Part shown: piece by piece, positions 9,643-49,886 of the stretch
Layout of the letters: every line of letters starts with the position of its first letter
How positions within the stretch are numbered: position 1 is the stretch's first letter
DNA from: Nitrospirota bacterium
Lineage (GTDB): Bacteria; JACPQY01
Direction of reading: 5' to 3'
DNA: 64,000 bases
NCBI GenBank assembly: GCA_016190245.1
Contig: JACPQY010000085.1
Span: 35,095 to 99,094 of the forward strand
Made by a program: the position numbers and the translations under genes
The notes under the pieces: generated by a model
Told to the model about the DNA's origin: nothing
Database searches by the model: none
Seen by the model: only the letters and a program-made list of their open reading frames with translations

Positions 9643-9704
9643 AAATCCGAAATCGCGAATCGAGAATCGGAAGACAAACGGGCAGGACGAGCCCACCCCA
9701 CTCG

Positions 9705-12070: not shown

Positions 12071-12282
12071 TCTTTGGGGACGTTGCCAATCAAAGCAACT
12101 CCCGCCGACTTCACTATGGGCCGCCCGTCACGATCTGTCGCTCCGTCCCACCCACCCCGATGACTCACCACCGCGGTCGAGTAAACGGTAATCCGCCACG
12201 GGCGGAGTGAACGGTGAACAGCGGGGCGAGAACCGGGAATCGGGAACGGGGGGCCAGAAGCCGAGAGCCGGGGAACCGTCTG
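12071..12282. repeat. ~205-bp intergenic repeat unit; permuted tandem copy at 42605-42858
   Basis: TCTTTGGGGACGTTGCCAA..CAAAGCAACTCCCGCCGACTTCACTATGGGCCGCCCGT and GTGAACGGTGAACAGCGGGGCGAGAACCGGGAATCGGGAACGGGGGGCCAGAAGCCGAGA are near-identical in both places. Confidence 0.85.
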
Positions 12283-23495: not shown

Positions 23496-23535
23496 GGTTC
23501 CTCCTCTTCGATTGGCTTTCATCGCAAACATCCCC

Positions 23536-24117
23536 TCACTTCTTCTCTGCTTCATCGGGCGCCTGAAGCTTCCACTCGCCGGGATCGAGCAGCACGAACT
23601 CATGGTGACCCGGGAGGAAAGTGCCGGAGACGATCATCGGGGGCATCCAGACCCGCTGGACGAGGGGGCGCTTCCAGACGTAGTGCTCCACTTCCGTCAT
23701 TTCCTGCCGCAGCGTGACCGCTTCCTGGAGTCCTCGTTTATATCCTTTCACGTAGGCTTCTTTGAGGTCCTTCCCTGAGGCCTTGGGGAGGTCGGCGTCT
23801 TTGGGTGGCGCCAGCTCGAGGTGGAGCCCCTCCGATTCGCAGCGGAGCGTCTCGCCGATCTGGTCGCACTTGAGTTCCATCTGGGGGGCCTTTCGGCCGG
23901 AGGGCTCGCCGGCCACCGCGTGAGCGGTGAGCAGTGAACAGTGAACGGTGAACAGGAGGGCGAGGAGCCAGGAGTGGGCCGCCATCAACCCCACCACCAG
24001 AGAAAAAGAACGCGGAAGCCAGGATCGCTTTCGTCCACAAGGCCAAATACCGACATCAGGATCCGCACTTCCCCTCTCTTTCCACGTTTTCCAACTCATT
24101 CTGGTGACGCTATGCAC
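23536..24117 (-). CDS. TraV-like outer-membrane complex protein (putative)
   Basis: C-terminal PLVQRVWMPP..GTFLPGHHEFVLLDPGEW resembles the TraV motif R.WIAP..G..H.G..V.V.PG.W; no clear lipobox. Confidence 0.45.
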   Translation of the reverse strand: MHSVTRMSWKTWKERGSADPDVGIWPCGRKRSWLPRSFSLVVGLMAAHSWLLALLFTVHCSLLTAHAVAGEPSGRKAPQMELKCDQIGETLRCESEGLHLELAPPKDADLPKASGKDLKEAYVKGYKRGLQEAVTLRQEMTEVEHYVWKRPLVQRVWMPPMIVSGTFLPGHHEFVLLDPGEWKLQAPDEAEKK

Positions 24118-24291: not shown

Positions 24292-25161
24292 TCAAAACGG
24301 CACCTCCAGCCCGGCGCTGCCTCCGAAGGCGCCGAACCAACGGATGCCCAGTTTGAGGATGAGGACGCGCAGGTCGAGTCCCACGTTCCCCCCCACCCCG
24401 ATCAGGTGGCGCGCCTGGGCATCCACGTCCGAGAGTTTCTGCTCGGTGGACTGCTGTCCACCGGAGGTTGCGAGCTTCTGTGTGTAGAAGCCATCCCCGA
24501 CAAATCGGGGCGAAACGAACACGTAGAACCCGGGGAAGACGAACTTGCGGGGCCCGATCTGCCACCACCACTGGGGCCCGATCCCGAGGGTGAGACCGAC
24601 CATGTCCCGAAGCTCCATCCGGCCGCTTGCCCGCACGTTCCCGATCGTGAGGGGCGTGTCCTGAACGAGAGACGTAACGTAGTCGAACTCCGTGAAGAGC
24701 CCGACTTCGGCGCTCCGGCTCCCGGCGAGCGAATAGCGGAGACCCGCTCCGGCGAGGAGACCCGTGGCGCGATCGTCATCGAGGACGGACGGCGAGAGCA
24801 CTCCGCCGATCTTCAGGAAGGCGTCCATCCGCTCCGTGAACCCGTATCCGCCCACGCCGGCGATCACCGTGCCTTCGACGTCGTACGGCGTGCGCGCCGC
24901 GCCGGTGCCGAAGCTGCCGGTGACGCTCAGCCGTTCGCCCAGGATTCCGCCTTCGACGCCCAGCATCCCCTCACCACGACGGAGGAGGTTGGACGGCATG
25001 GAAGATGTGAAGGCGTGCGCGGGCGGCGCGCAGAACGTGAGCAGTGAGCAGTAAGCAGTGAGCAGCAGCGTGGCGAACCCGAGGGCCGGGCGGCGGGGGA
25101 GGAGGGGAGCGGGAGATCCCGGGAGCCGGGGGCACAGTTTGTCGGGGGAGATGATGCTCAT
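24292..25161 (-). CDS. Outer-membrane beta-barrel protein
   Basis: Signal peptide, amphipathic strands, C-terminal aromatic residue (GLEVPF); ATGA overlap with the upstream adhesin. Confidence 0.65.
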   Translation of the reverse strand: MSIISPDKLCPRLPGSPAPLLPRRPALGFATLLLTAYCSLLTFCAPPAHAFTSSMPSNLLRRGEGMLGVEGGILGERLSVTGSFGTGAARTPYDVEGTVIAGVGGYGFTERMDAFLKIGGVLSPSVLDDDRATGLLAGAGLRYSLAGSRSAEVGLFTEFDYVTSLVQDTPLTIGNVRASGRMELRDMVGLTLGIGPQWWWQIGPRKFVFPGFYVFVSPRFVGDGFYTQKLATSGGQQSTEQKLSDVDAQARHLIGVGGNVGLDLRVLILKLGIRWFGAFGGSAGLEVPF

Positions 25162-33229: not shown

Positions 33230-35691
33230 GATTCCAGCCGGACGGCATCAATGAGAACGACGGTGTCGTACACCCTGTCGCCACCGTCTTTGACTTCGAA
33301 GATCAGCGTGGCACCCTGATTTCGAGCCGCCTCGGGCAGTGGGGCCGACACCGTGGTCCACTCCGTCGCGAAGACCGTGTGGTCGCCGCCCTCCAGGTCC
33401 AGGCCCATCACCGGGGCCCACGAGCCCCCGTCCGTCGTTATCGAGGTCAGAGTGGTCTTTGCGCCCGCCACGTCCAATGAGGCTTCGAAGGTGTCCCGGT
33501 AGGGCGACCCGACGAACTCAAGAGGCTCTTCGGAGACGAGCCGGTAGTCAAAAACGAGCTTCGTCGAACCCGGCGATACGCAGAAGGGCTGGCTGAGGCG
33601 GCTGGTCGCACCGTCCGCGGCTTTTTCCCCGGTGCTCACGAACGCCATGTAGCGGCCATCCTTCGAGGTGAGGGATCCCACGCGCGTGACAACCTGCACG
33701 TCGCCCTCCGGGTCCCATCCGCCGGCCGTTCCGTCTTCGAACGAGGCGTTGTTGAAGCCGTCGGCGGTGATTGTGACACTAGTGTCACCCGCAACTAACA
33801 GTGTGGCCGGATGGGGCTCGGGTTCAGGGGAACAGACCGCATCGGTCGGCCCGATCGTTCGGGTCACGAAATCGTACACCTCGCCCAACTTGGAACCCTT
33901 GAGGAACTCGCCGAAGACGGAGCGGACAACCGGGCCGTCGTAGCAGGTGCTGACGACCTCGCTGTAGCCGAGGTAGCCGGTCGTGCCGGCATTGATGAAT
34001 CCGTTCGGCAAGGAACCTCCGTAGTAGCTGCGGCAGGACCCGTTGAAGACGAGAGAGTTGGGACGCGAGGGCCCGTAGGAGGCGGCGAAGCCGGGGGAGA
34101 TGGCGTAGTAGGTCAACTGCGGAAGGCTGATTACCTTCCCGCCCAGGATTTCGCTCGCATACTGGGTTTCCCGATCGGGGCTCTTGGGCGTCCCGGACAG
34201 CGCGATCGAGACAACGACGTCCGCTGGATCTGGATCACTCGGGCACACTTTCATGTTCCCCGGTTTGCCGCAGTAAGCATCACCATGGGTGTCCAAGACA
34301 ACGATGTCGTAGTCCTTCATCGTCTTGAGCGTGTCGATTCCGGCGTCCTGGTTGTACACGCGGTGTGCTTCGAAAACGGGGCACTTGTGCCCCTCGATCA
34401 TGGAGTGCACCTCATCGTACGCGGCGGCCGGCAGGCGATCGCCTTGGTCACGAAATGCGGAGGCGACGAGGACTTTCGGGTTGGTCAGCGCCGCCCGCTC
34501 GGACGATCGGGCTGGCTGACGCTTGTATCGAATCGGATCGGGGCGCCGCTTCTCGTCGGGTTTGGGGGGCGCGGGGGCCGCGGGCGGTTCAGGCGCCGGT
34601 TTGGGAGCGCAGTTGACTCGCACCGGGCCGACTTTCGTCTTGAACGAGCCTCCACAGAATCCGTGCCTGCCACTGTCGAGCAAGTAGCTGTACGTGTCAC
34701 CACTCGAGGAGGCCTCGACCACGTTGGGCTGTTTTTTCAGCCATTCCGCCACCTGCCGGGCCGCCTCTTCATCGCCAGCTTCCACCCGCAGCTTCTCGTA
34801 CATCGTTCCTGCTTGGCCTTCGATCTCCCAGCTCCGCGCCCACTGCTCCTCCGTCCACGGCACGTACACTTGGGGCCCGAAAACCTCCGAATAGGCCCGG
34901 AACGAGCCGGCGCCCTCGCGTCCGCCCGAGACCGCGATTCGAAACCGCGCCCGCCCCTCGACGGTCTCGCGCAGGGTGGTCTTGTTGCTGAAGACGGCGT
35001 CCTTGGGGATGGAATCGGAGTGCTCCTTCTTGCCGTCGTCGAAAAGCTCGGCGATCGTTTCGATCGCCTCGTTGCCCTCGTTCACGCGCACGACTTCCAC
35101 GCGATCGATCATGACGCCTTTGGCTTCCTGGATTCCGATCCGGATCAGAACCTCCTCGGGCTGGTCGGTCATGAGAACCGTCTCGGAGAGGTCGGGGTAG
35201 CTGATGAAGTCCACCTCGGTGGTGCGGATGACCCACAGCACCACGGAGCCCGTGTTGGCCGCCGCGTCCCAAGCCGTGATGGTGATCCGGTTGTCGCCCG
35301 GCTCCAGATGAATCCCGCGGGCCTCCCAGTGAAGGCCGAAGGGCTCTGGACGGACGTCCGCGATCCCTTGTCCCCCTCGATCGCTCTCCCACTTCACGCG
35401 GACGACGGCCCGATCATCGCCGGCCGAGCCGGTCAGGTCGAGGGTGGGTTCGCGCGTCGAGTACCCCTCGACGTGTTCGGGTCGGATGGGCTCCGAGACC
35501 GATACGGAGGGACCCTGAGTATCTCGATCGGGGGCCTGCACCTCGGCCTCAGCCCGACCTCGCATCCGGTCCCATCCCGATTCGATCTGGTCGCACCCGG
35601 CGACCAGTGCGCCGTGGGCCGCGAGCAACAGGATCGCGAGCAGGCGGCCAAGAAAACGCGGCCGGATCTCAGTCCATCGGCGTCGCCCCAC
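33226..35691 (-). CDS. Lipoprotein with Ig-like domain and putative clan CD (caspase/gingipain-like) peptidase domain
   Basis: VAGC lipobox; DIVVLDTHG and SLVFNGSC His/Cys motifs; GTG 35691 with SD GGAGGA (the ORF-track extension to 36237 overlaps hicBA). Confidence 0.6.
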   Translation of the reverse strand: MGRRRWTEIRPRFLGRLLAILLLAAHGALVAGCDQIESGWDRMRGRAEAEVQAPDRDTQGPSVSVSEPIRPEHVEGYSTREPTLDLTGSAGDDRAVVRVKWESDRGGQGIADVRPEPFGLHWEARGIHLEPGDNRITITAWDAAANTGSVVLWVIRTTEVDFISYPDLSETVLMTDQPEEVLIRIGIQEAKGVMIDRVEVVRVNEGNEAIETIAELFDDGKKEHSDSIPKDAVFSNKTTLRETVEGRARFRIAVSGGREGAGSFRAYSEVFGPQVYVPWTEEQWARSWEIEGQAGTMYEKLRVEAGDEEAARQVAEWLKKQPNVVEASSSGDTYSYLLDSGRHGFCGGSFKTKVGPVRVNCAPKPAPEPPAAPAPPKPDEKRRPDPIRYKRQPARSSERAALTNPKVLVASAFRDQGDRLPAAAYDEVHSMIEGHKCPVFEAHRVYNQDAGIDTLKTMKDYDIVVLDTHGDAYCGKPGNMKVCPSDPDPADVVVSIALSGTPKSPDRETQYASEILGGKVISLPQLTYYAISPGFAASYGPSRPNSLVFNGSCRSYYGGSLPNGFINAGTTGYLGYSEVVSTCYDGPVVRSVFGEFLKGSKLGEVYDFVTRTIGPTDAVCSPEPEPHPATLLVAGDTSVTITADGFNNASFEDGTAGGWDPEGDVQVVTRVGSLTSKDGRYMAFVSTGEKAADGATSRLSQPFCVSPGSTKLVFDYRLVSEEPLEFVGSPYRDTFEASLDVAGAKTTLTSITTDGGSWAPVMGLDLEGGDHTVFATEWTTVSAPLPEAARNQGATLIFEVKDGGDRVYDTVVLIDAVRLES

Positions 35692-35755
35692 CCCCTGCCC
35701 TCCTCCACCCAGGCCCGAATTGCCGCCCGTGGCGCGTGGTGGTACGATTCTCTTC

Positions 35756-35971
35756 GTGGCAAGAAAGCGGGAAACCTTTCGCGCGACGTTCGTAAAGGAC
35801 GGCAAGTGGTGGGTAGCCTGGACGGATGACGTGCCCGGTGCCCTCACGCAGGGCGCAACTCTGGCAGAGGCTCGCGAGAACCTGAGGGACGCCATTCGAC
35901 TCATGCTTGAGCCCCTCGACTTGACCCGGCTGCCCAAGCGGGACGTCCGCGTCGAAACGATCTCCGTTTGA
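35756..35971 (+). CDS. hicB: HicB-family antitoxin (short form)
   Basis: WWVAW.DDVPGALTQG.TL.EARENL.DAI; TGGTACGAT 7 nt upstream of GTG. Confidence 0.85.
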   Translation: MARKRETFRATFVKDGKWWVAWTDDVPGALTQGATLAEARENLRDAIRLMLEPLDLTRLPKRDVRVETISV

Positions 35972-36159
35972 AGCGCCGCGAGTTGATCCGTCATCTCGAA
36001 AGCCACGGGTGTGCGCTGATCCGAGAGGGAGCCAAGCACAGCCGGTACGTGAATCTCGCCGACCCTCGACGCCAGACTTCGGTGCCGAGGCACCGAGAAA
36101 TCGCCGACCTCCTCGCGGTCAAGATCTGCCGCCAGCTCGGCGTTCCGGATATCCGGTAG
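35968..36159 (+). CDS. hicA: HicA-family mRNA interferase toxin
   Basis: MKRRELIRHL..GC..IREGAKH..T.VPRH.EI...L...IC.QL. Confidence 0.9.
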   Translation: MKRRELIRHLESHGCALIREGAKHSRYVNLADPRRQTSVPRHREIADLLAVKICRQLGVPDIR

Positions 36160-36224
36160 TCGGAACCTCCGCTCTCCTCCATCTGCGCGCCTCGCCTTCC
36201 GCCCCATGCAATGCGGCCGGTTCT

Positions 36225-36248
36225 GGTCCATCGTCAAGCTCTGACCTC
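36225..36248 (+). repeat. Solo copy of the RAYT terminal repeat downstream of hicBA
   Basis: GGTCCATCGTCAAGCTCTGACCTC; upstream ~35 bp similar to 44260-44297. Confidence 0.8.
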
Positions 36249-36334
36249 AAAGTTCAGCTCCTGCATTGTCCGAAGCTGACAGCTGATCGCTGACCGCTGA
36301 AGGCCTACAGGATTCAGTACCTGCTTCATTCTCC

Positions 36335-37663
36335 CTACCTCCCTCGCCCCCTGATGTGCCCAAGCTGTTGTTCGTCCCACTCGTTGGCCACCTCGGCCAG
36401 CCGCTGCAACCGCTCCGAATAGCCCGCCACCGTCAGCCCCGTGCTCGCTTCCAACCCCTGCCGCATGGCCCGGATGCGGGGGAGGGCCGCACGCAGGTAG
36501 GGCTCAAGCATCGGGAACATCGGATCGCCGCCGTACCCCAGTTCCCACCCGGCCGTCCGCGCCTCGGCATCCGCAAGCTGGGCCTCGATTCCACCGAGCG
36601 TCTGGAGCGCCTCCCCCACGGCCACGAACGTGGCCAAGGATTCCACCCCCTCACATCGCGTCGGCGTTCTGGACGCGTCCCACAGCACATTCCCACACTC
36701 CTTCATGTAGAGCTTGAACACACTGAAGGGCACGCCCAGTTTCTTGAGCACCGTCGAGAACTCCTTGTTGTCGGGAATGTTGCCGGGCGTGTTGGGGATA
36801 CCGGCCGAGAGGACCGGCAAGCCATCCGAGGCCTCCAGGATCTGGTAGGCGAGCGGCTTCGGATCGCTGGGATTTCCCGACCACTTCAGTTGCGCCTCGA
36901 CCACGTCGTAAGTGGTCTTCGCTGGACTCGACACCACCACGCCATTCGTTGCCACCCAGTTCCCCGCCTCCACGTCGCCCAGGAGATCCCACGACGGCGA
37001 ATCCACACCGGCGCCGCTGAGAACCGTCGAGAGCTTGAGCGGGGGCACAGCCACACCCTTGTTGGCGACCTCCATCGCATCCTTGGGATTCTCGATGCAA
37101 TCCTCCTGGTCACCGCCGAAACGCATACAGGTGGCCAACAGAAGACTGGAGATATCGGGCGCCCCATCACCGCCTCCGCCAGACCCAGCCAAAGTTGAAA
37201 GCGCCTGCGTCGTGGCCCCCTGAGACAGATCTCCAAGCTGCCCCTGCTGCATGGCCTTGGTAAGGAGGTCCCCAACAGATGGGAGGGCTGCCGTCATTGT
37301 CAGTTGGGTCAGGAAAATCCGCGACGTCGGCAGACTAAGGAGCGTGTCTTTCACCTTCGACTTGCCGTCCTCCGCCCACTTTTTCCCCAACTTCCCGGTC
37401 CGTTCCTTCATCATCCGGCCTACTCCTCGATCCAACGGTTGGACGGTCGTGGCCGCTGGAGAGCCGGCTCCGGCCTGCCCACCTGCCGGCGTGGCCGTCC
37501 CTGCCTGCGGCTGCCCCGCAGCCGGGGCCGGGCCGGTGCTCTGCACCTGCTTGGGCTTCTTGATTCCCCGCATGACCTGTTCCGTTTCCGCCGCGCGGGC
37601 GGTGGAGCCGAGCAGGCCGATCACAAGCGCACTGCCCATCCCGATGATGATTGCCTTTCGCAT
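36335..37663 (-). CDS. Secreted protein, possibly second TraH-like protein
   Basis: Signal peptide ARA; LPTSRIFLTQLTMTAALPSVGDLL weakly resembles the TraH helix; follows the second TraU-like gene. Confidence 0.3.
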   Translation of the reverse strand: MRKAIIIGMGSALVIGLLGSTARAAETEQVMRGIKKPKQVQSTGPAPAAGQPQAGTATPAGGQAGAGSPAATTVQPLDRGVGRMMKERTGKLGKKWAEDGKSKVKDTLLSLPTSRIFLTQLTMTAALPSVGDLLTKAMQQGQLGDLSQGATTQALSTLAGSGGGGDGAPDISSLLLATCMRFGGDQEDCIENPKDAMEVANKGVAVPPLKLSTVLSGAGVDSPSWDLLGDVEAGNWVATNGVVVSSPAKTTYDVVEAQLKWSGNPSDPKPLAYQILEASDGLPVLSAGIPNTPGNIPDNKEFSTVLKKLGVPFSVFKLYMKECGNVLWDASRTPTRCEGVESLATFVAVGEALQTLGGIEAQLADAEARTAGWELGYGGDPMFPMLEPYLRAALPRIRAMRQGLEASTGLTVAGYSERLQRLAEVANEWDEQQLGHIRGRGR

Positions 37664-37683: not shown

Positions 37684-37745
37684 TTAGTGTGTCCATCATG
37701 TCATCATATATATCTATGCCATATGATATCAATGTCAATATCCCT
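37684..37745 (-). promoter_or_regulatory. AT-rich promoter/operator island
   Basis: TTGACA (37733-38) and TTGATA-N18-TATGAT on minus; inverted ATCATAT..ATATGAT. Confidence 0.55.
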
Positions 37746-40700
37746 ATTGCCACACGCACATCGTGGGCGGCGTGGCCAGGAATTCAGCCGACCTCGAAGT
37801 GTTCGGTTCGTCCATCTTCGGACACTCGACCATGTTGGGTTGATCCGTGTTCGGATCCGTCCCAAGCTGATAGTGCGTCGGCGGGCTGCACTCCGCTCCG
37901 GGAGCGCAGGTGAGCTGGCATTGGGCAGGTACCCCACCTGCCGGTGGCGGTCCCGCGTCGGAATAAATCGGAACGGATTGGCCCGTCGCCGGGTCTCGAA
38001 ACGTACCGGGACAGCCGCCTCCCTTGCGGATGCCGCTGTCGGAGTCCTGGGCACTCGGGTCCGCCGAGTCGAACTTCTCGGGGTAGCCGGTACACGTGCA
38101 AATCTGCTTGTCACTCCCATCCGGCAGCCGGAACCACATGCACTTGCGCATCCGGATCTTGTGCGATCCGTTGCCGAACGCAGGATCCGTGTCCGTGCAA
38201 TAGGCCACCGAGCACCCGCCCAAGAAGGCCACGCGTTTCTTGGGATCCTTCAGGCCGGTCAGCATCCGGCGGTAGAGGTCATAGCTCGAGTACGGAATGC
38301 CGACTCCCCCCGCCACGTGCTGCATGTCCGTCGCGTTGGATCGCGAACATTCGACGAGCGAGGCATCGGCGTTCCAGTCCAAGGCAGGACAGCTCAACGG
38401 ATCGGCGGGGTCTCGCGGAGTCTTCTCGGTCGTGGAGCTGTCGCACAGGCCCTTGGGCTTGATGGACTCCTCCAGGGCCACCTTCTGAGCCGCATCCGTG
38501 ATGCCACATCCGAAAACCTTGTATGCGTCTGAATCCGTCTTCCCCGCGTCGGCCAGCCAGCCACACGCGTCCTTGGGCTCGGGATGGACGGCAGGGTCCG
38601 GGGGGACCGGCTTGGGCAGATTGCGGCCGCGCCTCTGCCGCTCTTCCCAAAGCCTGAGATCGTATTCGTATTGGGCCCATTTCTCCGCGGCGACCACTTC
38701 GGGAGCGGGATTGTTCTTCAGTTGCTCGTTGAGGTCATGTGCCTCCTTGGCCAAGTCCATTCCCTGACGAATCCCGTCCTGCACAGGCTGAGGCAGCGCG
38801 CTCATCGGCGCGCTGGACAGGATCGCCTTGCCCAAAGTCGATCCCGAACCACCCAAACGAATATCCTCGTACACCTTGTCCTCAACACATCGGGCGATCT
38901 CACCGGGGCGAGGCTTGCCGGTGGGGACGCAGCCCGCGAACGGCCCGGCAGGGGACTGCGCAGCCAACGTTTCCAACGCCTGATTGGCCAAGCCTGAAAA
39001 CAAGCCCACACCGGCATCCTTGTCCCTATAGCGTTCGCGATTGACCTGGCACTGGCGGATCACATCGCGCGCCTCCAAGTCCAATGGGAGGTGCTTGACC
39101 GCCACCCCGGCCAACGCCTGGCGAACATCGGGCCTGAGGGCACCGTAGAAACCCTGCCCACAGTGCACCGAAGCAAGCGGGGCGTCGCAAAGCCGGTCGC
39201 GGGCCACTCGATTCAGCGTGGAAACATCCTGCCCCAAGTATGGGGGATTCGTGTCCAAAATCCGGCCCTGACAGCCCTGCCAAGGGTCGGGCATGGGCGT
39301 CCACACGAGGGGACACCACGGCGGGCACCGGTCGAGGCACACGCCGTCGAGGGCCGTGAAATCCCCAGCCGTGGCCGGAAGGTGAGGGAAAAGGGCCGCC
39401 ACCTCGTCGGGCGGCCGATTGAACAGATCGCCCATCTCATCGATAGTCCACTTGCCCGCCTTCCGGTCCGATTCGGACCCCCCGAACAGATCGTCGCACG
39501 CCTCCGGCGCACCGTTGCGGATTGCGCAGTGCCCTGCGTCCTCCGGCGCGACGGGCGGGATTGCATTGAGATCGCCCGGGGCACACTTGACGCGAACGGC
39601 CCCGTGAATCTTGTCCGCCAGGACTTGGCTCCCGATGGTCTGGATCGTGCCGCCAAACCGGACCACGCTGATGACCGTGTTGAGATTGCGGAACACCTTC
39701 TCGATACTCCCACCGGGAAAGGCCTGCTGGCAGGCCGGAAGCGAGGGCGTTTGCGCCACATCCGCCTTCGCAACAACACCCACCAGATCGCTGATCTCAC
39801 CCAGGCATTCGACCGCGTGCTCGACCATCGCGATGGCTTGCCGAATCTGACTGTAGAGGGTGCGCAACTTGTTGACGACGTCGACGATCTTGGCGAGGAT
39901 GGAAGCCGCCTCAATCGCGGCCAGCGCGATCTCGCAGGTGGGGCCAGAGAATACTGTCGTTACACTGCATGTTGGCGCATATTTTGCAGCTTCCGCGGCT
40001 GCCATGTCCGATAGCGAGGTCATCAGGCACTGCTGCAGCTTGCTCGTATCGCCCGCCTCGGTCCAAACGATGAACCCATAGGAACTCTGCCTGGCAAACT
40101 TCGTCGGGTCGGTGCGACGCGCAGAGACACTGTACTCGGCAGGAATGGTGATCGTGATGTTGCCGTCGGCATCATTCTCGGGTGCAAAGCAGCCCGTCTT
40201 CTCCGGCCAGATCGCGTTGAATTGGTACTTTGACGGCTCGGCGAAAACATCACCATGCTCCACAAGCTTACCGCTCAGCGCCGTGGCTGCCCGAGAAAAA
40301 CCCCGCAGGGCCATCTGGAACGACGAAAGGAGCGGGTCCGTTGATGCGACCACGCCCTTGCGGGCATACTGTTGGATCGCCGTACTCCGTCCGACCGAGT
40401 CGTCCTCCCAAATCACCTTCTTGCCCAAACCCAGTCCTTCACCGAAGCTCAGATCGAACAACCCAGTGTTCCACTGGAACCAGTCCACCTCGGAGAAGTA
40501 GACGGGAAAGATGATCGGGGTGTCCTTCTGGGGCGGAAGATAGTCCGGGATCTTGTAGTTGTTCTCTACGAGCTGGAACATTTCAGGAAGCATCGCGTCC
40601 GCCGCATGGCAGATCAGGATCTGGAAGAGTTCCGAGACAAACTCGGGGTTGTTGTACTTCCACACGTGGACATCCCGGAACTGGATTCCACCTCCGCCGG

Positions 40701-41196
40701 CGTCGTTCACACCCGTGCGACCCTTGAGATCGACCGAACTGGAAAGAAGCGTGGAGAGGCCGCCCCAATCGAATCCTGGAAGCGCGTCGCCGATCGCCTT
40801 CATCACGACCTTCTTGGACGATTCCACCTTGGTCACGTCCGCGAGCTTGCGGAGAAAGTTTGTCCCATGCGGCGGAAACAAGAGCGTCTGCTCCCGCTCG
40901 GTCACCACTTCGATGTAGTACGTGGGGACCCAGAACTTCACCTCAAACCCAAGGGGAGTTGACGCCGGTGCCGTGAACTTGAAATCGAGGCAACTGGGTT
41001 CAATGAAGCCCTCCGCGTAGATATCCGCTGTGACCCCCCAGCCCTGAGCATGCGCAGGTACCCCAGCCATGGAGACCAAGCTACTCGCGACCACCATGAT
41101 CACGTACCGCGCATTCGCTGCTCTTCTTCGGCCAAGGTAAGCCGGAAAACTAGTCGGGAGGCGCACATTGATCGCCCGCTCGGGATCATGCGCCAT
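37744..41196 (-). CDS. TraU-like N-terminal domain fused to a Cys-rich C-terminal region (about 1150 aa)
   Basis: FWVPTYYIEVV, FRDVHVWKY, VYFSEVDWFQW motifs match TraU and the 4436-7972 protein; many Cys in the C-terminal two thirds. Confidence 0.6.
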   Translation of the reverse strand: MAHDPERAINVRLPTSFPAYLGRRRAANARYVIMVVASSLVSMAGVPAHAQGWGVTADIYAEGFIEPSCLDFKFTAPASTPLGFEVKFWVPTYYIEVVTEREQTLLFPPHGTNFLRKLADVTKVESSKKVVMKAIGDALPGFDWGGLSTLLSSSVDLKGRTGVNDAGGGGIQFRDVHVWKYNNPEFVSELFQILICHAADAMLPEMFQLVENNYKIPDYLPPQKDTPIIFPVYFSEVDWFQWNTGLFDLSFGEGLGLGKKVIWEDDSVGRSTAIQQYARKGVVASTDPLLSSFQMALRGFSRAATALSGKLVEHGDVFAEPSKYQFNAIWPEKTGCFAPENDADGNITITIPAEYSVSARRTDPTKFARQSSYGFIVWTEAGDTSKLQQCLMTSLSDMAAAEAAKYAPTCSVTTVFSGPTCEIALAAIEAASILAKIVDVVNKLRTLYSQIRQAIAMVEHAVECLGEISDLVGVVAKADVAQTPSLPACQQAFPGGSIEKVFRNLNTVISVVRFGGTIQTIGSQVLADKIHGAVRVKCAPGDLNAIPPVAPEDAGHCAIRNGAPEACDDLFGGSESDRKAGKWTIDEMGDLFNRPPDEVAALFPHLPATAGDFTALDGVCLDRCPPWCPLVWTPMPDPWQGCQGRILDTNPPYLGQDVSTLNRVARDRLCDAPLASVHCGQGFYGALRPDVRQALAGVAVKHLPLDLEARDVIRQCQVNRERYRDKDAGVGLFSGLANQALETLAAQSPAGPFAGCVPTGKPRPGEIARCVEDKVYEDIRLGGSGSTLGKAILSSAPMSALPQPVQDGIRQGMDLAKEAHDLNEQLKNNPAPEVVAAEKWAQYEYDLRLWEERQRRGRNLPKPVPPDPAVHPEPKDACGWLADAGKTDSDAYKVFGCGITDAAQKVALEESIKPKGLCDSSTTEKTPRDPADPLSCPALDWNADASLVECSRSNATDMQHVAGGVGIPYSSYDLYRRMLTGLKDPKKRVAFLGGCSVAYCTDTDPAFGNGSHKIRMRKCMWFRLPDGSDKQICTCTGYPEKFDSADPSAQDSDSGIRKGGGCPGTFRDPATGQSVPIYSDAGPPPAGGVPAQCQLTCAPGAECSPPTHYQLGTDPNTDQPNMVECPKMDEPNTSRSAEFLATPPTMCVWQ

Positions 41197-41200
41197 CTGC

Positions 41201-41797
41201 TCACCTCGGCCTCTGCGGCGCAAACGCCCCGCCGAGGAATGCGGCCTTGCACTTGGGATCCTCGGGGCCATTTCTCATGATCTCTGCCGCAAGCTTGCAA
41301 GAAGGAATGTTCGCAGCGAGCTTGAACTCCTCTGTCACTCTCGCGTCGTCCGGACCATAGAAGCTACCCGTCACTTCCATGTACGGACAGAGGCTTGCGG
41401 CAGGGCTTGCGTCGACATCTGACACGCACTGTTCGTACGCCTCGATTGCTCTTCGGGAGATTGCTTCGAGGGACGTCGCAAGATTGGGGCACTCCCCGGC
41501 AATTGTCTTGTTGCCTTCCAGAGCCTCGCTCACGGCAACATTCTCAAAGGCGCGCAGACATTCCTCGGGCGTCCCATGGATTCTTACTAGGGGGGCCTCG
41601 GGTGCACACACAAATGCAACCTCGCATACTTCCTTTTTCAGGAATTTCATCGCCGCCTCGTCGAACCTTCTGACTTCGTCGCTTTTCGCGCCTCCGCTCT
41701 TCTCTTCTCCGCCGCATGCTGCAAGGGCGAGCGTGAGAAAGACGCCTCCCATTGCGAATCTCGCGCCGCCAAGCCTGAAATGAAGACGCCCGCGCAT
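41201..41797 (-). CDS. 8-Cys lipoprotein, paralog L2
   Basis: LAAC lipobox, CEVAFVC..TPEEC, 8 Cys after the lipid Cys. Confidence 0.75.
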   Translation of the reverse strand: MRGRLHFRLGGARFAMGGVFLTLALAACGGEEKSGGAKSDEVRRFDEAAMKFLKKEVCEVAFVCAPEAPLVRIHGTPEECLRAFENVAVSEALEGNKTIAGECPNLATSLEAISRRAIEAYEQCVSDVDASPAASLCPYMEVTGSFYGPDDARVTEEFKLAANIPSCKLAAEIMRNGPEDPKCKAAFLGGAFAPQRPR

Positions 41798-41810
41798 CGT
41801 TCCTCCCCTT

Positions 41811-42467
41811 TCAACCCTTCACCAAGGGTCGTTTCGACCCGCGCTCCGGGGCAAACAACAAGTCGGTGTAGCCTTGCATCACATCGCCACAGGGATCCCC
41901 AGCGCTAAGCCGCTGGAACTCCTCTAATGAGACCCTGTTGTCTTGCCGAAAAAAATAGTCCTTGCAACCCGAGCTTGAAGCCTGTCCCAGGATTCCGAAG
42001 TCATCACCATCGTAGTAGGGCGCTTCGGACACATCCACGAACTGACACAGGCTTTCATTGGGCAGCGATGCGACATCCTCCATACATGACACGTACGACG
42101 ACGACAGGCCAGTCGCGCGAAGAAACTCTGCACACCTCGCACGGTCTGGAATCTCCAGAGATCCACTGACTCGCTGGTCCATCAATGCCCGGCACTCCCC
42201 CACTGTCGCCGGCGAAACCCGGATCGAAGTAGCGCTGTCAAAGATAGCCGCTTTTCTGCCATACCCACAGGCAAATAGGACGTCACACGTCTTGTGGTAT
42301 CGGACCTGTAGTGCATGGAGGTGGTTCTCAATTGGGTCCCCCTCGTTCCCCCCTCCCTCATCCCCCCCCCCGCAGGTGGGAAGAATCGTGAAGGGGAATG
42401 TGTAAAGGGTGAGCAGCAGGGCCAGGATCGAGAACCGTGAACCGAGAATCGTGAATCGATGGGTCAT
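41811..42467 (-). CDS. 8-Cys lipoprotein, paralog L3
   Basis: LPTC lipobox-like, CDVLFAC..TVGEC, 8 Cys after the lipid Cys; SD AAGGAG. Confidence 0.75.
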   Translation of the reverse strand: MTHRFTILGSRFSILALLLTLYTFPFTILPTCGGGDEGGGNEGDPIENHLHALQVRYHKTCDVLFACGYGRKAAIFDSATSIRVSPATVGECRALMDQRVSGSLEIPDRARCAEFLRATGLSSSYVSCMEDVASLPNESLCQFVDVSEAPYYDGDDFGILGQASSSGCKDYFFRQDNRVSLEEFQRLSAGDPCGDVMQGYTDLLFAPERGSKRPLVKG

Positions 42468-42479
42468 GTCAGGCTCCTT

Positions 42480-43500
42480 TCAGAACCGCAAATCGGGAAT
42501 CGTGAATCGGAAATCGAAAACCGAGAAAGGAGAACGGCTCTTGTGGCGAACCCTGAAGCGTGAAGCGAGACCCCATGCGGCATCGGCGCCGAGGCCCGGG
42601 AGTAACGATCATGCGTTCCGTCCCATCCGCCGCCACGACCCGCCGACGCGGTCGAGCAAACGGTGAGCAGTGAACGGTGAACAGCGGGGCGAGAACCGGG
42701 AATCGGGAACGGGGGGCCAGAAGCCGAGAACCGGGGAACCGTCTGTAAAGTCTTTGGGGACGTTGCCAAGCAAAGCAACTCCCGCCGACTTCACTATGGG
42801 CCGCCCGTGACGATCGTGCGTTCCGTCCCATCCGCCGCCACGACCCGCCGACGCGGCCGCCGTGCACGAATCCGTGCGCAGATCAAGCCTCGGGAAGTTG
42901 TAGATCGCGTCGCCGTCAACGTCGGGAGGGCCGCCGTCAAAGCGGGCACGGCTCTGCGACTGCACCTTGGGGACAGGCAAGTCAGATTGCCCCATCAGGA
43001 ATGCTCCTCTCGGGGATCGCGGAACCTTCGGGACGTTGCCAAGAAAGTCAAGCTGTGCCATCGGGGGTGCTCCTTTCGGAATCGGGAATCGCAAATAGGG
43101 GAACGGGGAGCCAGGGAGCCGGGGAACCGGGAAATGCAAATCGGGAATCGGAAACTGAGAACAGCCGGTCTGGATTCCGGCTTCCACCGGAATGACGGAC
43201 CTTGACCCCGCAGCGCGCCGGATTCCCCGCCAGCCGGCGGGGAATGACGCACCCCCCTGCCGCGGCGCGGGCGCGTCTCCGAAAACCCCTCCTGTCTCTC
43301 CATAGGCATTCCCCCTCGGAATGCCCGCACCCTCGGTTCTTCGGCTCGCCCTCTCCGCCACGGCGGACTCGCCTGATCCTCGGGTACTGGGCCTTCGTGG
43401 CCCGCACCGCTCGAAATCCCGCCTCACCTTCCCGGCTCGGCCGGTACTCACGGCACGGGGTCGTCCTGGCCCGCCACTCCACCTCTCTGGTGAGGTTCCC
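42480..43500. repeat. Repeat-dense intergenic mosaic
   Basis: Blocks homologous to 12071-12282, 10958-11030 and 9705-9911, heptamer tracts, and a GTCATTCCGG..CCGGAATCCAG-type palindrome near 43168-43197. Confidence 0.8.
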
Positions 43501-44762: not shown

Positions 44763-47700
44763 TCATGGCAGATTGATCACGACGGTTGCGCTCAGCTTCA
44801 TGGCCGTCGTCCCATCCCCCACTTGGCCGCTCGTGTTCCCTCCCCAGCACTTGGCCGACCCGTCCGAGAGAGATGCGCACGTGAAGTCGCCTCCTCCCGT
44901 CAGCGCCACCACGCCGGAGAGGCCGGTCACGGACACCGCGGTGTTGCGGTCGAGGATCGAGCCGTCCCCGAGCTGGCCGCTGGCGTTGTCCCCCCAGCAT
45001 TTCGCGGCCCCACTGGCGTACCACGTGCAGCTATGGTTCTTGCCCGTCACGATCGACCGCACCGTGTTTGCCCCGCTCACCGCCGCCGGCGTGTTCCTCG
45101 TGGTGTTCGTCCCGTCCCCGAGCTGGCCATCCGTGTTCAGCCCCCAGCACTGTGCCGCCGAGGCAGTCGTGGCAAAACACGCGTGATCGCCTCCCGCGGC
45201 GATCGCCCTCACCCCCGTCGGCGAACCGAAGAGCGTCACGGGCGCGTTCTGGTTCACGTTGTCCCCGTTGCCGAGCTGCCCGCTCGCGTTGTAGCCCCAG
45301 CACCTCGGCGTTCCATCCGCGAGGACCGCGCAGGTGTGGTTGTCTCCCGCCGAGAGACCCACGGCCGTCGCGATCACGCTCACCGACACGGGCGTCAAAC
45401 TCTGGTTGTTCGTCCCATCCCCGAGCTGCCCGGACGTGTTCAGCCCCCAGCACTTGATCGTGCCGTCATAGATCAAGGCGCACGTGTGGCTGCCTCCGGC
45501 CGCGATCGCCGCGACCTTCGAGAGCGACGTGGCGCACGTCCCCACGTCACACACCGCCACGGGACTCGTCCCCTCCGTCGTCGAATTGTCCCCCAACTGG
45601 CCGTTCGTGTTCTTGCCGAAGCATTTCACGGTCCCACCGGCCACGAGAACGCACGTGTGTGAGCCTCCGCCCGCCACCGACAGGACATTCGCCAACGTCG
45701 AGATGTTGAGCGGCACGGAGCTGTTCGTCGTGCTCCCGATCCCGAGCTGACCGTTCCCGCCCAGCCCCCAGCATCGCACCTTCCCCTCCGTCACGACGGC
45801 GCACGCGTGACCGTCACCGCCGGTCATTGGCTCTTGGGCCCGCGTAGGGCGGGCTCCCCACCCCGACGCAAGCGCCCGGCTCGGCGAGATCAGCCCCACC
45901 GGCCCCTCGAGGACCGTCACCGCTCCCGGCTGGTACCAGCCGGATCCCGACACCCGCCCCAGGACGCCCGATCCGGCGTCATATCCCCAGCTCTGGAGCG
46001 TCCCGTCCGCCATGAGGGCAAAGCTGTGCTGACTGCCGTTCGAGGCCCCCGCCACCGACGTGAGGGTCAGCACCGCCCCCGACGACTTGCCGCAGGCATT
46101 GCCTGCACAGTCATCGGGCCCCGTGTTGTTCCCGTTCCCAAGCTGCCCGTAATAGTTCAGCCCCCAGCATCGCTCGGTCCCGTCCGACATCACCGTGCAG
46201 GCGTGGTCGGCACCCCCGCTATCCCCCGTCGCCACCCCCAGCGCACCCGTGCCCGCGCCGAACCCCAGGACGATGGCCGGCGTGTTGGACGACGACGTCC
46301 CCCCATTCCCCAACTGGCCGTTATTGCTTATTCCCCAGCACCTCGCCCCACCGTCCGAAAGCGTCGCGCACGTGTACCGATTCGCGGCCGCGATCGCCAC
46401 GACCTTCGAGAGCGAGGTCCCGCAATCGCTCACGTTGCACACCGCCACGGGGGTCATCTGGCAGGGTTGGCCGTTGCAGTTGCCGCTGGGGTTCCCCTGC
46501 CCGAGCTGGCCCTGGTCATCCCGGCCCCAGCACTTGGCGCCCCCTCCATCAACAGCCGCGCAGGCGTGCTCGGTCCCCGTGCTGATCGCCACGGAAGTGA
46601 AGCCCCCGGAGACCGTGGCCGGGGTGTAGCTGTCGGTCGTGCTCCCGATCCCGAGCTGGCCATAGTAGTTGTCCCCCCAGCAAACCGCCACCCCATTCAC
46701 CCGCAGCGCACACGCGTAAAAGCCGCCCACGCTGATCGCTATGGCGTCCGTCAGAGAGCCTTGCACCTGCATCGGCAGCTTCGAACACGCCACGGTGGAA
46801 CAAGTGCTCGGCCCCGTGCTGGTCCCGATCCCGAGCTGCCCCTGGTCGTTCCTCCCCCAGCACCAGACCGTGCCATCATGCTTGAGCGCGCAGGTCTCCT
46901 TCGCATCGTCGCCCCGCCCCGCGAAGACGGCTATCACACCCGTCAAGGACCCCGCACCGCAGCCGGTCGAGGCGCAGACGGTCACCGGCGTCGTCGAGGC
47001 CGTCGTCGAATCGTTGCCGAGTTGGCCGTAGGTATTGCCCCCCCAGCACTTCACGGTCCCGTCCCCCACCAGGGCGCAGGCGTAGGTGTCCGAGCCCGCT
47101 CCCCCCGAACTCATCCCCACCACACTCTGGGTGGAGTGCGTGTAGGCGCTCTTCTCCACCACGTTCGTGTCCACGTTGCCCGCCTCGTCCCGGGCCCGGA
47201 TCACGAAGAAATAGCGTGTCCCCACACTTAGGGGCGTGGCCGAATACGATACGGCACCGGCGCTCGTCGTGTAGGTGGCCGTGAAGCTCGAGGCGCACCC
47301 CGTGTAGGTCGTGCTCCAACATATCTGATAGACCATGTTGGCCGCCGAGGTGACGGAATCCGTCGCCGCGCTCCAGGTCAGGTTGATCTGGGTGGACGAC
47401 ACCGCACCCGCCGTGGTCGCCCCGCTGAAGGTCGGCGCCGTCCCGTCGTGCACATACGTGACCCCCGTCGAGGGGTTCGAGACATTCCCGGCCGCGTCGG
47501 TCGCCTTGGCCGTGATCGCGTTCGAGGCGTTCAGACTCACCGCCGTGGTCACGGTCACGGAGAACGCCCCGCCGGCATTGGCGCTCCCCGTCCCGATGAG
47601 CTCCCCGTCATCGAAGATCTGGATCGTGGCATTGGCCTCCGCGCTCCCCGTCACCGTGGGCTTGCTGTTGCTGCCCGGGCTCGCGGGACTCGTGGCCAGG

Positions 47701-49886
47701 CCCGTGGGCGCCCCCGGCGCCGTCGTGTCCACCAGGATCCCGTTCGAGGCCACCCATGCCCCGCTGTTCGCAGCCGTGTCGCGCGCCCGGACGCAGTTGT
47801 AGTACGTGGCGCTGTTGACGAGCGTGAGCCCCGTCGTGGTCTTGGCCGTCACCGCCCCCACGTTCACCGCCCCCACCGTCTCCCCACCGCAGGATGTCGA
47901 GAGGCTCAGGTTGTACTCGTAGCTCGCGATCCCGTTCGCGTCCGCGAACCCGCTCCAGGCCGCCGTCATGCTCGCCGTGTTGTTCTGGGCGACGACGTCC
48001 GTCGGTCCCCCGTCCGTGACCGCCCCGCCCGACGGGACCACGTTGTCGTGCACGTAGGTCAGGGTGTTCGAGACCGCCGACACGTTGCCCGCGTTGTCCG
48101 CGGCCTTGGCCGTGATCGCGTTCGAGGCGTTGCCGCTCACCGCCGTCGAGACCACAATCGAGAAGGACCCACCGCTCCCGACCGACCCGGTTCCGATAAG
48201 CGCCCCATCGTCGAAAATCTGCACCGCGATGTTCGCCTCCGTCGTCCCCGAGACCGTGGGCAGGAGGGAGTTGCCCGGGCTGGACGGGGTCAGGGAGCTT
48301 AGGGTCACCGCCGGCGCCGTCTTGTCGTTGGTGAGCGGGAGGGCCTGGCTCACGTTGCCGGCCGCGTCCACGGCCACGACGTAGATCTTGTCCGAGGCAT
48401 CCCCCTTGTTGTCGCCGATCCCCACGGACGCGAAAGACCCGCTCGCTTGAGCGGTCGTCTCCGCCAACTTGGACGTGAGGAGCGCGTCCTCGTAGATCTT
48501 CACCGTCGCCGAGGTCTCCACGGCGCCCGCCGAACCGCTCACTTGGTCCGACGTGCCCGGCGCGTTCATGGTGACCGTCACTTTCGCCACGTCCGGCGAG
48601 CCCGGCGCGGTCGTGTCCACCGTCCACGTGTGCGCCACGATGGCCGACTCGTTGCCGGCGGGATCTATGGCCTTGACCTGGAGCGTGTGGGAACCGTCGG
48701 CAAGACCGGCCAACGCATAGGGCGAGGTGCAGGCCGAGAAAACTCCGCCGTCGAGCGCACAATTGGTCCCACAATTGAGCTCGCTGCACGAGAACGTGAA
48801 CGAGGCGCTGTTGGAGGCCACGATCGCGCCGGGACCCCCCGTCACGGTCGTTGTGGGCGCCGCCGTGTCAATCGTCCACGTGTAGCTGACCGGTGTGGAA
48901 TCGGCCACGCCGTCCGCCGAAACACCCCGCGCTTGGAACGTGTGCTTGCCCTGGGGCAGGCCCTCGTGGAGGCTGGGCGACTTGCAGTCGGCGAACCCCG
49001 CGCCGTCCAGATTGCACTGCGTGGAGACACCCGTGGTCGTGAACCGGAATGTGGCCGAGGTCGAGTTGGTCAGCGCAGGCGGCTTCGCCTGGAGGCTCGT
49101 CTCGGGCTCGGAGCCCGCGGCCACCGTGGGCGGGGTGATGACCGCGCCCGTGACCGGGTCCACCAGAGTCGTCCCCGCAGTGGTCGTCTGGCCTGAGGAA
49201 ATGGCGCCCTGGAACGCGTCCGTGAGGGTGGATGAGGCCTGCGTCACCTGCTCAGCCGTGGGCTTGCTGAGCGCGTTCTGGGGATCCGTGCCCAGGATCA
49301 GCTCGATGAAGTTTGCAATGGTGTCTCCATCGTCATCTGCGATGACCACGCCCGAGGCGTCGAGCAGAATGAGAACGTCGGAGCCGGAGAAATCGATCAC
49401 ACCGGTCGCGGTGAGAATGAGAGTGCCGCTTTTGTCGATCACATAGACCTCGAAGGTCACCTGGGAGGCTTGGCGGCGCGGGCTGCCTCTGACACCCGCG
49501 GCATCGAGGGCCACTTCCTCAGGCAGTGCGAGCGACAGCGCAGCCCCCGAGTCTGATTCCGCCATCGTCAGGGCCAAGCCCTCACCCACGGTGCGACCGT
49601 TCACCGAGATCGTGGCCGTGCCGTCGCGCGCCTTCACGGCGCCCGCCACTTCAACAGCGACGGGAATGGCGATCGTAAGCGTTTCCTCTTCGCCCGATCC
49701 CTTCTTCTTGCAGCCAGGGCCGGCCACGAGAAGCAGGCACAAAGCTGAAAGCAACAAGCGAACGAAAGATGGAACGTGGTTGGACGGATGAGACGAACGC
49801 AGCATGTGACTCCCCTCCTCACTCATGCGGGACGACAACATGGGACCAGAGGTACCCCTTTCACTCGCCACCCTCTGAAACCCCAC
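44763..49886 (-). CDS. Giant surface lipoprotein: Ig-like/FN3 stalk plus RCC1/BLIP-II repeats (adhesin 2, paralog of 25158-30491)
   Basis: Same domain string and extensive DNA similarity to adhesin 1; different N-terminus (GPGC lipobox-like); start may be near 49806. Confidence 0.9.
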   Translation of the reverse strand: MGFQRVASERGTSGPMLSSRMSEEGSHMLRSSHPSNHVPSFVRLLLSALCLLLVAGPGCKKKGSGEEETLTIAIPVAVEVAGAVKARDGTATISVNGRTVGEGLALTMAESDSGAALSLALPEEVALDAAGVRGSPRRQASQVTFEVYVIDKSGTLILTATGVIDFSGSDVLILLDASGVVIADDDGDTIANFIELILGTDPQNALSKPTAEQVTQASSTLTDAFQGAISSGQTTTAGTTLVDPVTGAVITPPTVAAGSEPETSLQAKPPALTNSTSATFRFTTTGVSTQCNLDGAGFADCKSPSLHEGLPQGKHTFQARGVSADGVADSTPVSYTWTIDTAAPTTTVTGGPGAIVASNSASFTFSCSELNCGTNCALDGGVFSACTSPYALAGLADGSHTLQVKAIDPAGNESAIVAHTWTVDTTAPGSPDVAKVTVTMNAPGTSDQVSGSAGAVETSATVKIYEDALLTSKLAETTAQASGSFASVGIGDNKGDASDKIYVVAVDAAGNVSQALPLTNDKTAPAVTLSSLTPSSPGNSLLPTVSGTTEANIAVQIFDDGALIGTGSVGSGGSFSIVVSTAVSGNASNAITAKAADNAGNVSAVSNTLTYVHDNVVPSGGAVTDGGPTDVVAQNNTASMTAAWSGFADANGIASYEYNLSLSTSCGGETVGAVNVGAVTAKTTTGLTLVNSATYYNCVRARDTAANSGAWVASNGILVDTTAPGAPTGLATSPASPGSNSKPTVTGSAEANATIQIFDDGELIGTGSANAGGAFSVTVTTAVSLNASNAITAKATDAAGNVSNPSTGVTYVHDGTAPTFSGATTAGAVSSTQINLTWSAATDSVTSAANMVYQICWSTTYTGCASSFTATYTTSAGAVSYSATPLSVGTRYFFVIRARDEAGNVDTNVVEKSAYTHSTQSVVGMSSGGAGSDTYACALVGDGTVKCWGGNTYGQLGNDSTTASTTPVTVCASTGCGAGSLTGVIAVFAGRGDDAKETCALKHDGTVWCWGRNDQGQLGIGTSTGPSTCSTVACSKLPMQVQGSLTDAIAISVGGFYACALRVNGVAVCWGDNYYGQLGIGSTTDSYTPATVSGGFTSVAISTGTEHACAAVDGGGAKCWGRDDQGQLGQGNPSGNCNGQPCQMTPVAVCNVSDCGTSLSKVVAIAAANRYTCATLSDGGARCWGISNNGQLGNGGTSSSNTPAIVLGFGAGTGALGVATGDSGGADHACTVMSDGTERCWGLNYYGQLGNGNNTGPDDCAGNACGKSSGAVLTLTSVAGASNGSQHSFALMADGTLQSWGYDAGSGVLGRVSGSGWYQPGAVTVLEGPVGLISPSRALASGWGARPTRAQEPMTGGDGHACAVVTEGKVRCWGLGGNGQLGIGSTTNSSVPLNISTLANVLSVAGGGSHTCVLVAGGTVKCFGKNTNGQLGDNSTTEGTSPVAVCDVGTCATSLSKVAAIAAGGSHTCALIYDGTIKCWGLNTSGQLGDGTNNQSLTPVSVSVIATAVGLSAGDNHTCAVLADGTPRCWGYNASGQLGNGDNVNQNAPVTLFGSPTGVRAIAAGGDHACFATTASAAQCWGLNTDGQLGDGTNTTRNTPAAVSGANTVRSIVTGKNHSCTWYASGAAKCWGDNASGQLGDGSILDRNTAVSVTGLSGVVALTGGGDFTCASLSDGSAKCWGGNTSGQVGDGTTAMKLSATVVINLP

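Follow-up and report, generated by a model that had tools for sequence, protein, structure and literature searches.

Predicted lipoprotein genes at the locus

The DNA analysed here, called the window throughout, is a stretch of 64,000 nucleotides (nt) from a Nitrospirota bacterium (GTDB JACPQY01; assembly GCA_016190245.1, contig JACPQY010000085.1, positions 35,095-99,094, forward strand). The locus under study, window positions 41201-42467, holds two tandem genes, L3 and L2, that encode small, cysteine-rich predicted lipoproteins and precede a very large gene, big2. A third gene of the same kind, L1, lies elsewhere in the window, and a fourth, L4, was found on another contig (C71) of the same genome (G000, 85% complete). 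Coordinates refer to the whole window unless a contig is named. Together with homologues from other sources, these genes make up a new and very small family of predicted accessory lipoproteins, found with an F-like type IV secretion system (T4SS) that departs from the usual form of this known machine. The lineage is uncultured, isolated at the phylum level and has no close relatives in the 400 genomes sampled for comparison; with the exception of the sole genome of the same family (G001, 97% complete), all the sampled relatives have only the domain in common with G000. The units formed by an L gene, a large gene and a third gene are called cassettes below. The L genes of G000 are as follows.

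41811-42467, minus strand: L3, 218 amino acids (aa), lipobox LPTC, lipid Cys32, eight later cysteines; first gene of cassette 2
41201-41797, minus strand: L2, 198 aa, lipobox LAAC, lipid Cys28, eight later cysteines
7969-8481, minus strand: L1, 170 aa, lipobox LPGC, lipid Cys25, eight later cysteines; first gene of cassette 1
C71:69023-69655: L4, the fourth paralogue, ten cysteines, upstream of big3

The ATG of L3 is preceded by the Shine-Dalgarno sequence AAGGAG at a distance of 6 nt, that of L2 is AGGGGAGGA, and L1 starts with ATG behind the Shine-Dalgarno sequence GGAAGGAG; a gap of 13 nt separates L3 from L2. The open reading frames (ORFs) bore out both the coordinates and the protein features from which the original prediction had started, namely a lipobox, a Gly-rich tether, a C-x5-C motif and eight cysteines. 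The N-termini of L1-L3 consist of a positively charged n-region, a hydrophobic h-region and a lipobox-like cysteine followed by Gly at +2. Behind the lipid Cys comes a tether of 10-20 residues rich in Gly, Asp and Glu, and then a domain with exactly eight further cysteines, including those of the C-x5-C and (T/S)-x-x-E-C motifs; the mature part measures about 145-190 aa. When the lipobox was compared with the pattern [LVI][ASTVI][GAS]C, it was canonical in L2 (LAAC) and in the homologues P0006 (ALSC) and P0008 (AASC), whereas a Pro occupies position -2 in L1, L3, L4, P0005 and P0007 (LPGC, LPTC, LPSC, FPGC). On these features the L proteins are predicted lipoproteins and, because of the Gly at +2, they would be expected in the outer membrane.

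A very small protein family

The original prediction had grouped L1-L3 as a family of three. The relationship held: BLASTP connects L1 with L2 (E 9e-8) and L2 with L3 (E 3e-6), a direct comparison of L1 with L3 giving no significant match. The count did not, since a family profile retrieved L4 over its full length in G000 (E 8e-31). The profile of these four members was then run with HMMER, in filter-only mode, over 1.84 billion representative proteins and produced nine matches: the four from G000, P0005-P0008, matched over their whole length (E 4e-18 to 3e-10), and P0009. The last of these is marginal, its match being limited to the signal peptide and tether, and it was left out of the family. 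The eight credible members span E values from 4e-78 to 3e-10 and all of them carry the lipobox Cys, Gly at +2, the Gly/acidic tether, the C-x5-C...E-C framework and an AP motif near the C-terminus. By these searches L1-L3 are genuine homologues and the family is extremely rare.

Scans of the L proteins against Pfam, NCBIfam, PADLOC and PHROGs were all empty (for Pfam, no family for L1-L3 at E<=1), the L profile had no match among PDB sequences at E<=10, and word-indexed protein searches brought back almost only the proteins of G000 itself. Identity between mature domains is uniformly 25-38%, all against all, and judged from these alignments the family is conserved mainly in its cysteine framework. 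In a tree of the family, which is saturated and weakly supported, the members from one type of cassette (type 1: L1 with P0007 at 91/89, joined by P0005) stand apart from those of the other (type 2). This grouping by cassette type is consistent with long co-inheritance.

Linkage to large genes with a TraU-like domain

Downstream of the L genes of G000 lie three large genes.

37744-41196, minus strand: big2, about 1150 aa, secreted, likely start ATG 41196 (the longest ORF, of 1175 aa, runs from 41271)
4436-7972, minus strand: big1, about 1178 aa, secreted, likely start ATG 7972 (longest ORF 1190 aa)
contig C71, downstream of L4: big3, an ORF of 1120 aa

Position is a strict feature of the family. 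Seven L genes have downstream sequence that can be read, and each is followed immediately by a large gene with a TraU-like N-terminal domain or, in the case of L3, by L2 and then such a gene. They represent six loci: three in G000, one in G001 and two on independent metagenome contigs (L011 and L015). P0006 stands outside this count, as its contig stops 19 nt past the gene. The large proteins are about 1100-1200 aa long and reach 1224 aa in G001. Distances are short throughout. The stop codon of L1 and the likely start of big1 overlap as ATGA at 7972-7969; 4 nt separate the stop of L2 from the big2 ATG at 41196, whose Shine-Dalgarno site, GAGG, falls within the last part of L2; and the gap between L4 and big3 is 15 nt. 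In G001, P0007 is the positional orthologue of L1 and lies directly upstream of a big1-like gene of 1224 aa. On L015, P0008 ends 10 nt upstream of P0014, a big2-like gene of 1202 aa. P0005 overlaps by 11 nt a downstream gene whose first 89 residues contain the big1-type motif YWVPYYVVELVP. Neither orphan L genes nor L arrays were found in G000 or G001. Judging from this layout of starts and stops, L is translationally coupled to the large gene. The original prediction had named homologues without linkage to T4SS genes as one outcome that would refute it; the homologues proved to be linked to such genes, and the idea that each L is cognate to its neighbour gained from this.

The same prediction had placed each L set upstream of a TraU-like gene. 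The adjacency is confirmed; the TraU label proved to be a weak profile-profile match that Pfam and NCBIfam do not see. Neither of these libraries, nor a genome-wide PF06834 search, gave a TraU match in the large proteins, and tblastn of the big1 N-domain against plasmids returned no TraU either. N-terminal stretches of 450-560 residues from five large proteins were then compared by hhalign with TraU of F and four diverse TraU proteins from the 400 genomes. The alignment scored 30.8 (E 0.004, probability 8%), a score reached by none of 150 column shuffles (mean 15.4, standard deviation 2.7, maximum 23.4), and the reversed control scored 16.8. It is anchored at a G-x-x-x-(Y/F)-W-x-P...EVV motif, and a relaxed maximum-accuracy alignment is collinear through the motifs HVHWY and YLSE-DP-W up to the TraU C-terminus. 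A TraU-like N-domain in the large proteins is on this evidence probable but weakly supported. Using these N-domains to look for related loci over genome contigs and metagenome contigs returned nothing.

Cassette types and the surrounding secretion genes

Two types of cassette can be told apart by their large and third genes. The type-2 large proteins big2, big3 and P0014 are 36-44% identical over their full length, and their C-terminal halves are rich in cysteine (36-44 Cys; 36 in big2). Type-1 big1 and its G001 orthologue have only the N-domain in common with them, and their C-terminal part is helical and charged. By hhalign, the C-terminal extensions matched neither TraN nor TraH nor other Tra proteins of F, and family-library scans of the large proteins found no recognisable toxin domain. 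The third genes of the two cassettes in the window, together with the first core gene that follows cassette 1, are listed here.

36335-37663, minus strand: p442, third in cassette 2; shares 44% identity with 409a, the third cassette gene of L015
3195-4472, minus strand: p425, third in cassette 1; its G001 counterpart, 23% identical, is the only match
771-1841, minus strand: TraK-like gene (TraK_C), downstream of cassette 1

No relation between p425 and p442 was detectable (BLASTP 0.36, hhalign 0.18). Neither matched TraH of F, in what is a weak test with a single-sequence template, and the label 'TraH-like' for the third genes is accordingly not endorsed. Between type 1 (big1/p425) and type 2 (big2/p442), only L and the TraU-like N-domain are detectably homologous. 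The simplest reading, and the most likely one, is therefore that L has kept a role that concerns this domain.

Cassette 1 heads the T4SS core operon. Past the left edge of the window, downstream of TraK, follow TraB/TrbI (2e-18), TraV and the TraC ATPase (PF11130 at 2.5e-18 and a P-loop_TraG domain), and the same gene order is found after the cassettes of G001 and L015. TraV was recognised by PF09676 (23 bits, above the cut-off) and is the only match to this family in G000, at C79:34229-34672, after TraB. Searches of G000 and G001 for a coupling protein gave nothing with PF02534 and only P-loop-level matches with PF10412, and the relaxase family PF03432 was not found in either genome, other relaxase families not having been searched. 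From its gene content, the machine is probably an atypical, non-conjugative F-like type IV secretion or pilus system. Between TraV and TraC (C79:29036-36033) there is also a gene for a 576-aa protein that begins with a four-helix domain of the 23S_rRNA_IVP type and has a weak Secretin_N match behind it, as well as an ORF of 166 aa that resembles the N-terminal part of this protein; an IVP gene follows TraV in L015 too, and a GGDEF-FHA protein comes after TraC. Elsewhere in the window, the ORF at 23001-23603 (minus strand) has in its C-terminal part two long helices, hydrophobic and rich in Gly/Ala, that give it the look of a pilin of the TraA/VirB2 type.

The presence of TraV bears on one possible role of L, that of a core-complex lipoprotein equivalent to TraV or VirB7, which are likewise small and fast-evolving. 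This role is most improbable. A separate TraV gene occupies the expected place after TraB, L also occurs in satellite cassettes far from the core genes, and its even number of cysteines leaves no spare one evident for an intermolecular bond. The identification of L with TraV itself was rejected, because of the separate TraV and because L has no PF09676 match.

The slot upstream of the core genes is not always filled by the same cassette. On L015 (1318-8018), a type-2 cassette consisting of L, a big2-like and a p442-like gene lies upstream of a p384-like gene, TraK and TraB, whereas the cassette at this place is of type 1 in both G000 and G001. The two types therefore appear exchangeable at one locus. 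In total G000 has three cassettes, one of type 1 and two satellites of type 2, compared with a single cassette in G001. The satellite cassette 2, at the locus under study, is followed by genes for proteins of 1003, 913 and 1777 aa (the last with RCC1/Big domains) with 4-nt overlaps, and its operon (25158-37663, minus strand) appears to run from p442 into the 1003-aa ORF and onward to the 913- and 1777-aa genes. The 1777-aa RCC1/Big-domain surface protein resembles a 1707-aa RCC1-repeat ORF at 44763-49886. The other satellite cassette, that of L4, follows housekeeping genes (UvrA, a pyridoxal phosphate enzyme, GH1) at a contig end.

Predicted structure

An AlphaFold2 (AF2) model of mature L2, built on seven family rows, has nine helices, a predicted local distance difference test score (pLDDT) of 66.7 and a predicted template modelling score (pTM) of 0.66; the five models range from 62.6 to 66.7 in pLDDT. 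An earlier run on an alignment of four sequences (pLDDT 50.8) was too poor to use. A Foldseek comparison of the L2 model with the PDB retrieved only generic helical bundles (best E 1.8, TM-score <0.3), and no fold could be assigned. The model suggests that mature L is an all-helical bundle, and the even number of cysteines together with this bundle would point to four intramolecular disulfides.

This prediction weighs on a further possibility, that L is a lipid-anchored functional replacement of TraW or TrbC. In F, the traW gene (210 aa) lies directly upstream of traU and trbC next downstream, L is similar in size, and the cluster showed no apparent homologue of TraW or TrbC, their profiles not having been searched genome-wide. 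Against this, hhalign of the L profile gave nothing with either TraW (E 0.21) or TrbC (E 0.63) of F. According to PMC4027160, the periplasmic factors TraW, TraU, TraF and TrbC of F-type systems share homology among themselves, but L is predicted to be an all-helical bundle. A replacement of this kind seems distinctly improbable.

Composition, divergence and possible recombination

The L genes had been described as lower in guanine and cytosine (GC) than their flanks, and this was confirmed: L1-L3 have a GC content of 0.56-0.59, compared with 0.646 for the G000 genome, and the GC content of third codon positions (GC3) is lower as well (0.59-0.65 versus 0.76-0.87 in neighbouring genes). L4, P0007 in G001 and P0008 on L015 also have a GC3 below that of the adjacent large gene, so that the difference was found in every full-length comparison possible. 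Since L genes outside G000 show low GC3 as well, it counts as a family trait, reflecting weak codon adaptation or fast evolution, and recent horizontal import was rejected as its cause.

Comparison of orthologues between G000 and G001 shows how fast the cassette diverges. L1 and P0007 are 32% identical, p425 and its counterpart 23%, and p384 and its counterpart 32%. In big1 identity is 41-54%, and it amounts to 44% in TraK, 46% in TraB, 45% in TraV and 51% in X576. By these identities L is fast-evolving, yet it is not uniquely hypervariable in its cassette, as it evolves no faster than p425 or p384.

Two repeated segments lie at the 5' side of L3.

42348-42481, minus strand: 5' module of L3, 134 bp, comprising the ribosome-binding site and the first 40 codons (signal peptide, lipobox and Gly tether)
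42750-42937, minus strand: upstream repeat, 188 bp, 88% identical to the region upstream of L4 (C71:68784-68971)

At 96% identity the 134-bp module matches the 5' end of L4 (C71:69009-69142), while the remainder of both genes falls below blastn detection. Such a sharp boundary at the tether suggests gene conversion or recombination. The 188-bp repeat recurs once more at window 12070-12179 (85% over 110 bp), upstream of a lipoprotein cluster near 12 kb. Upstream of L1 there is an IS200-like gene of the repeat-associated tyrosine transposase (RAYT) type with a terminal inverted repeat at 8589-8636 and an inverted copy at 9617-9645; the repeat at 8589-8636 recurs upstream of the L gene on L015 (545-592, 98% over 48 bp), which comes from a different sequencing run. 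Further, unrelated predicted lipoproteins of G000 have a common signal-peptide motif, SRFSIL-LLLT-(Y/H), encoded at C10:106182-106271, C79:15708-15806, C63:98395-98499 and window 11603-11695, and the DNA of this motif resembles a short repeat at several other places of G000 (CGATTCTCGGTTCACGGTTCTCG-like).

Possible exclusion or self-recognition

Rapid divergence next to a T4SS component was the basis on which the original prediction had proposed that L acts in exclusion, immunity or self-recognition. By analogy such a function is possible, with TraT and with Sfx, encoded beside traN, as precedents that are unrelated to L in sequence. L would then be a cognate surface lipoprotein that refuses or neutralises contact by the matching TraU-fusion of sister cells, and cells with the same cassette would not engage each other. 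Known exclusion factors (TraT, TrbK and Eex of pKM101) are lipoproteins (references in PMC11493245), and the specificity of Sfx is set by the TraN of the donor (PMC11493245; the position beside traN was seen in pRA1). The properties of the L genes fit in several respects. Only the cysteine framework is conserved, at 25-38% identity; GC3 is low relative to full-length neighbours; cassette 2 carries L3 as an extra tandem copy; the 5' ends of L3 and L4 bear a recombination signature; and G000 has three alternative cassettes to the one of G001. It is the rapid divergence, the extra copy and the Sfx/TraN precedent (PMC11493245) that keep the idea alive.

Several observations speak against it. Beyond the lipobox, L has no similarity to TraT, TraS or Sfx. 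It is the first, coupled gene of its operon, whereas Sfx is reported to be constitutive (PMC11493245) and, in pRA1, on the strand opposite to traN. L is kept in both cassette types despite their unrelated variable extensions, the large proteins have no toxin domain, orphan L genes and arrays were found neither in G000 nor in G001, and L evolves no faster than p425 or p384. As no coupling protein was found, nor PF03432, the sole relaxase family tested, classical plasmid exclusion would have no obvious rationale here. A role of L in exclusion, immunity or self-recognition is therefore conceivable but rather unlikely. A wider version, in which the units of L, large gene and third gene serve as exchangeable specificity cassettes in an F-like T4SS that is domesticated and non-conjugative, and the L proteins are 'self' tags fitted each to its own TraU-fusion, is more speculative and should be regarded as unlikely. 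If true, it would describe a T4SS-based self/non-self system built on a TraU scaffold, and any exclusion or self-recognition function of L would extend the logic of Sfx and TraN to a chromosomal, non-conjugative machine.

L as a proposed dedicated partner of the TraU-like protein

The reading that we favour, tentatively and short of calling it probable, is that L is a co-translated tether, pilotin or chaperone and the dedicated partner of the TraU-like domain. It is preferred because of the obligate linkage, the coupling as first gene of the operon, the retention across cassette types and the lack of orphan copies. L would be produced together with the giant TraU-like fusion encoded immediately downstream; the flexible Gly/acidic tether would hang the disulfide-locked helical bundle from the membrane; and there L may tether, pilot or chaperone the TraU-like N-domain at the envelope face of the F-like T4SS or pilus machine. 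In this scheme we infer the localisation of L, its disulfides, its physical binding to the large protein and its role in assembly. The even number of cysteines (eight, or ten in L4) and the predicted helical bundle fit a stable periplasmic binding module. Small lipoproteins that stabilise envelope subunits of a T4SS have a precedent in TraV, which stabilises TraK/TraB. Another is VirB7, a small, fast-evolving lipoprotein that stabilises VirB9 (PMC4027160).

Some points count against this partnership. Tandem L3 and L2 genes before a single large gene are unexpected for a partner in a 1:1 ratio. To our knowledge, TraU needs no lipoprotein partner in the characterised F systems, where its upstream neighbour is the soluble TraW. 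The TraU-likeness of the neighbour is itself weak, as the hhalign values given above show (E 0.004, probability 8%), and the divergence outside the cysteine framework, at 25-38% identity, would also fit a recognition or exclusion protein. Confidence in the fold model of L2 is only moderate (pLDDT 66.7), and no structural relative offers a hint of its function.

Among the components of F-type machines, the periplasmic assembly factors (TraU, TraW, TrbC, TraF and TraH) are, as far as we know, the ones least well understood. In the cassettes described here, giant variable extensions are joined to a TraU-like domain, and a private lipoprotein, predicted to be rich in disulfides, accompanies it in every case. 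If L is a tether or pilotin, the arrangement would illustrate a way of anchoring a TraU-type module and of diversifying it. Either way, L constitutes a tiny new family, with eight credible members in 1.84 billion representatives and a clear candidate for its partner.

Comparison with known lipoproteins

Compared by hhalign with the Tra proteins of F, the L profile showed no similarity, TraT and TraV aligning only at the lipobox. A parallel in genetic setting is offered by Sfx, the outer-membrane surface-exclusion lipoprotein of IncC/IncA plasmids and a predicted Sec/SPII substrate; as with L, its gene neighbours that of a large, variable T4SS envelope protein that contains cysteines (TraN) (PMC11493245). 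The two have no similarity past the lipobox (Sfx of pRA1: hhalign E 0.24 over 11 columns), and Sfx, with 286 aa, has three cysteines to the eight of L. Relative to traN, the sfx gene is downstream and on the other strand, with expression reported as constitutive, whereas L is upstream of its large gene and predicted to be co-translated with it. In addition, Sfx comes from a conjugative plasmid, and L from a chromosome in which the search for a coupling protein was negative.

TraT, the surface-exclusion lipoprotein of the F plasmid, sits in the outer membrane, a location that L may have in common with it. It has chromosomal homologues in many phyla and assembles into a decamer anchored by an alpha-helical barrel (PMC11733297, PMC12658005). 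In contrast to TraT, L1-L3 have no PF05818 match, and the hhalign alignment covers only 12 lipobox columns (E 0.048). The genes differ in position too, traT coming after traG/traS and L standing at the TraU-like gene.

TraW resembles L in that its gene lies directly upstream of traU and its size is comparable. It differs in being neither a lipoprotein nor rich in cysteines, and no homology between the two is detectable. TraV and VirB7 have no sequence similarity to L, which is larger, predicted to be helical and provided with eight cysteines, and the partners are different: TraK/TraB and VirB9 for TraV and VirB7, the TraU-like protein, as proposed here, for L. What L, as a predicted lipoprotein, has in common with them is small size and fast evolution, and stabilisation of a larger subunit, the mechanism by which TraV and VirB7 act, is the one proposed for L.

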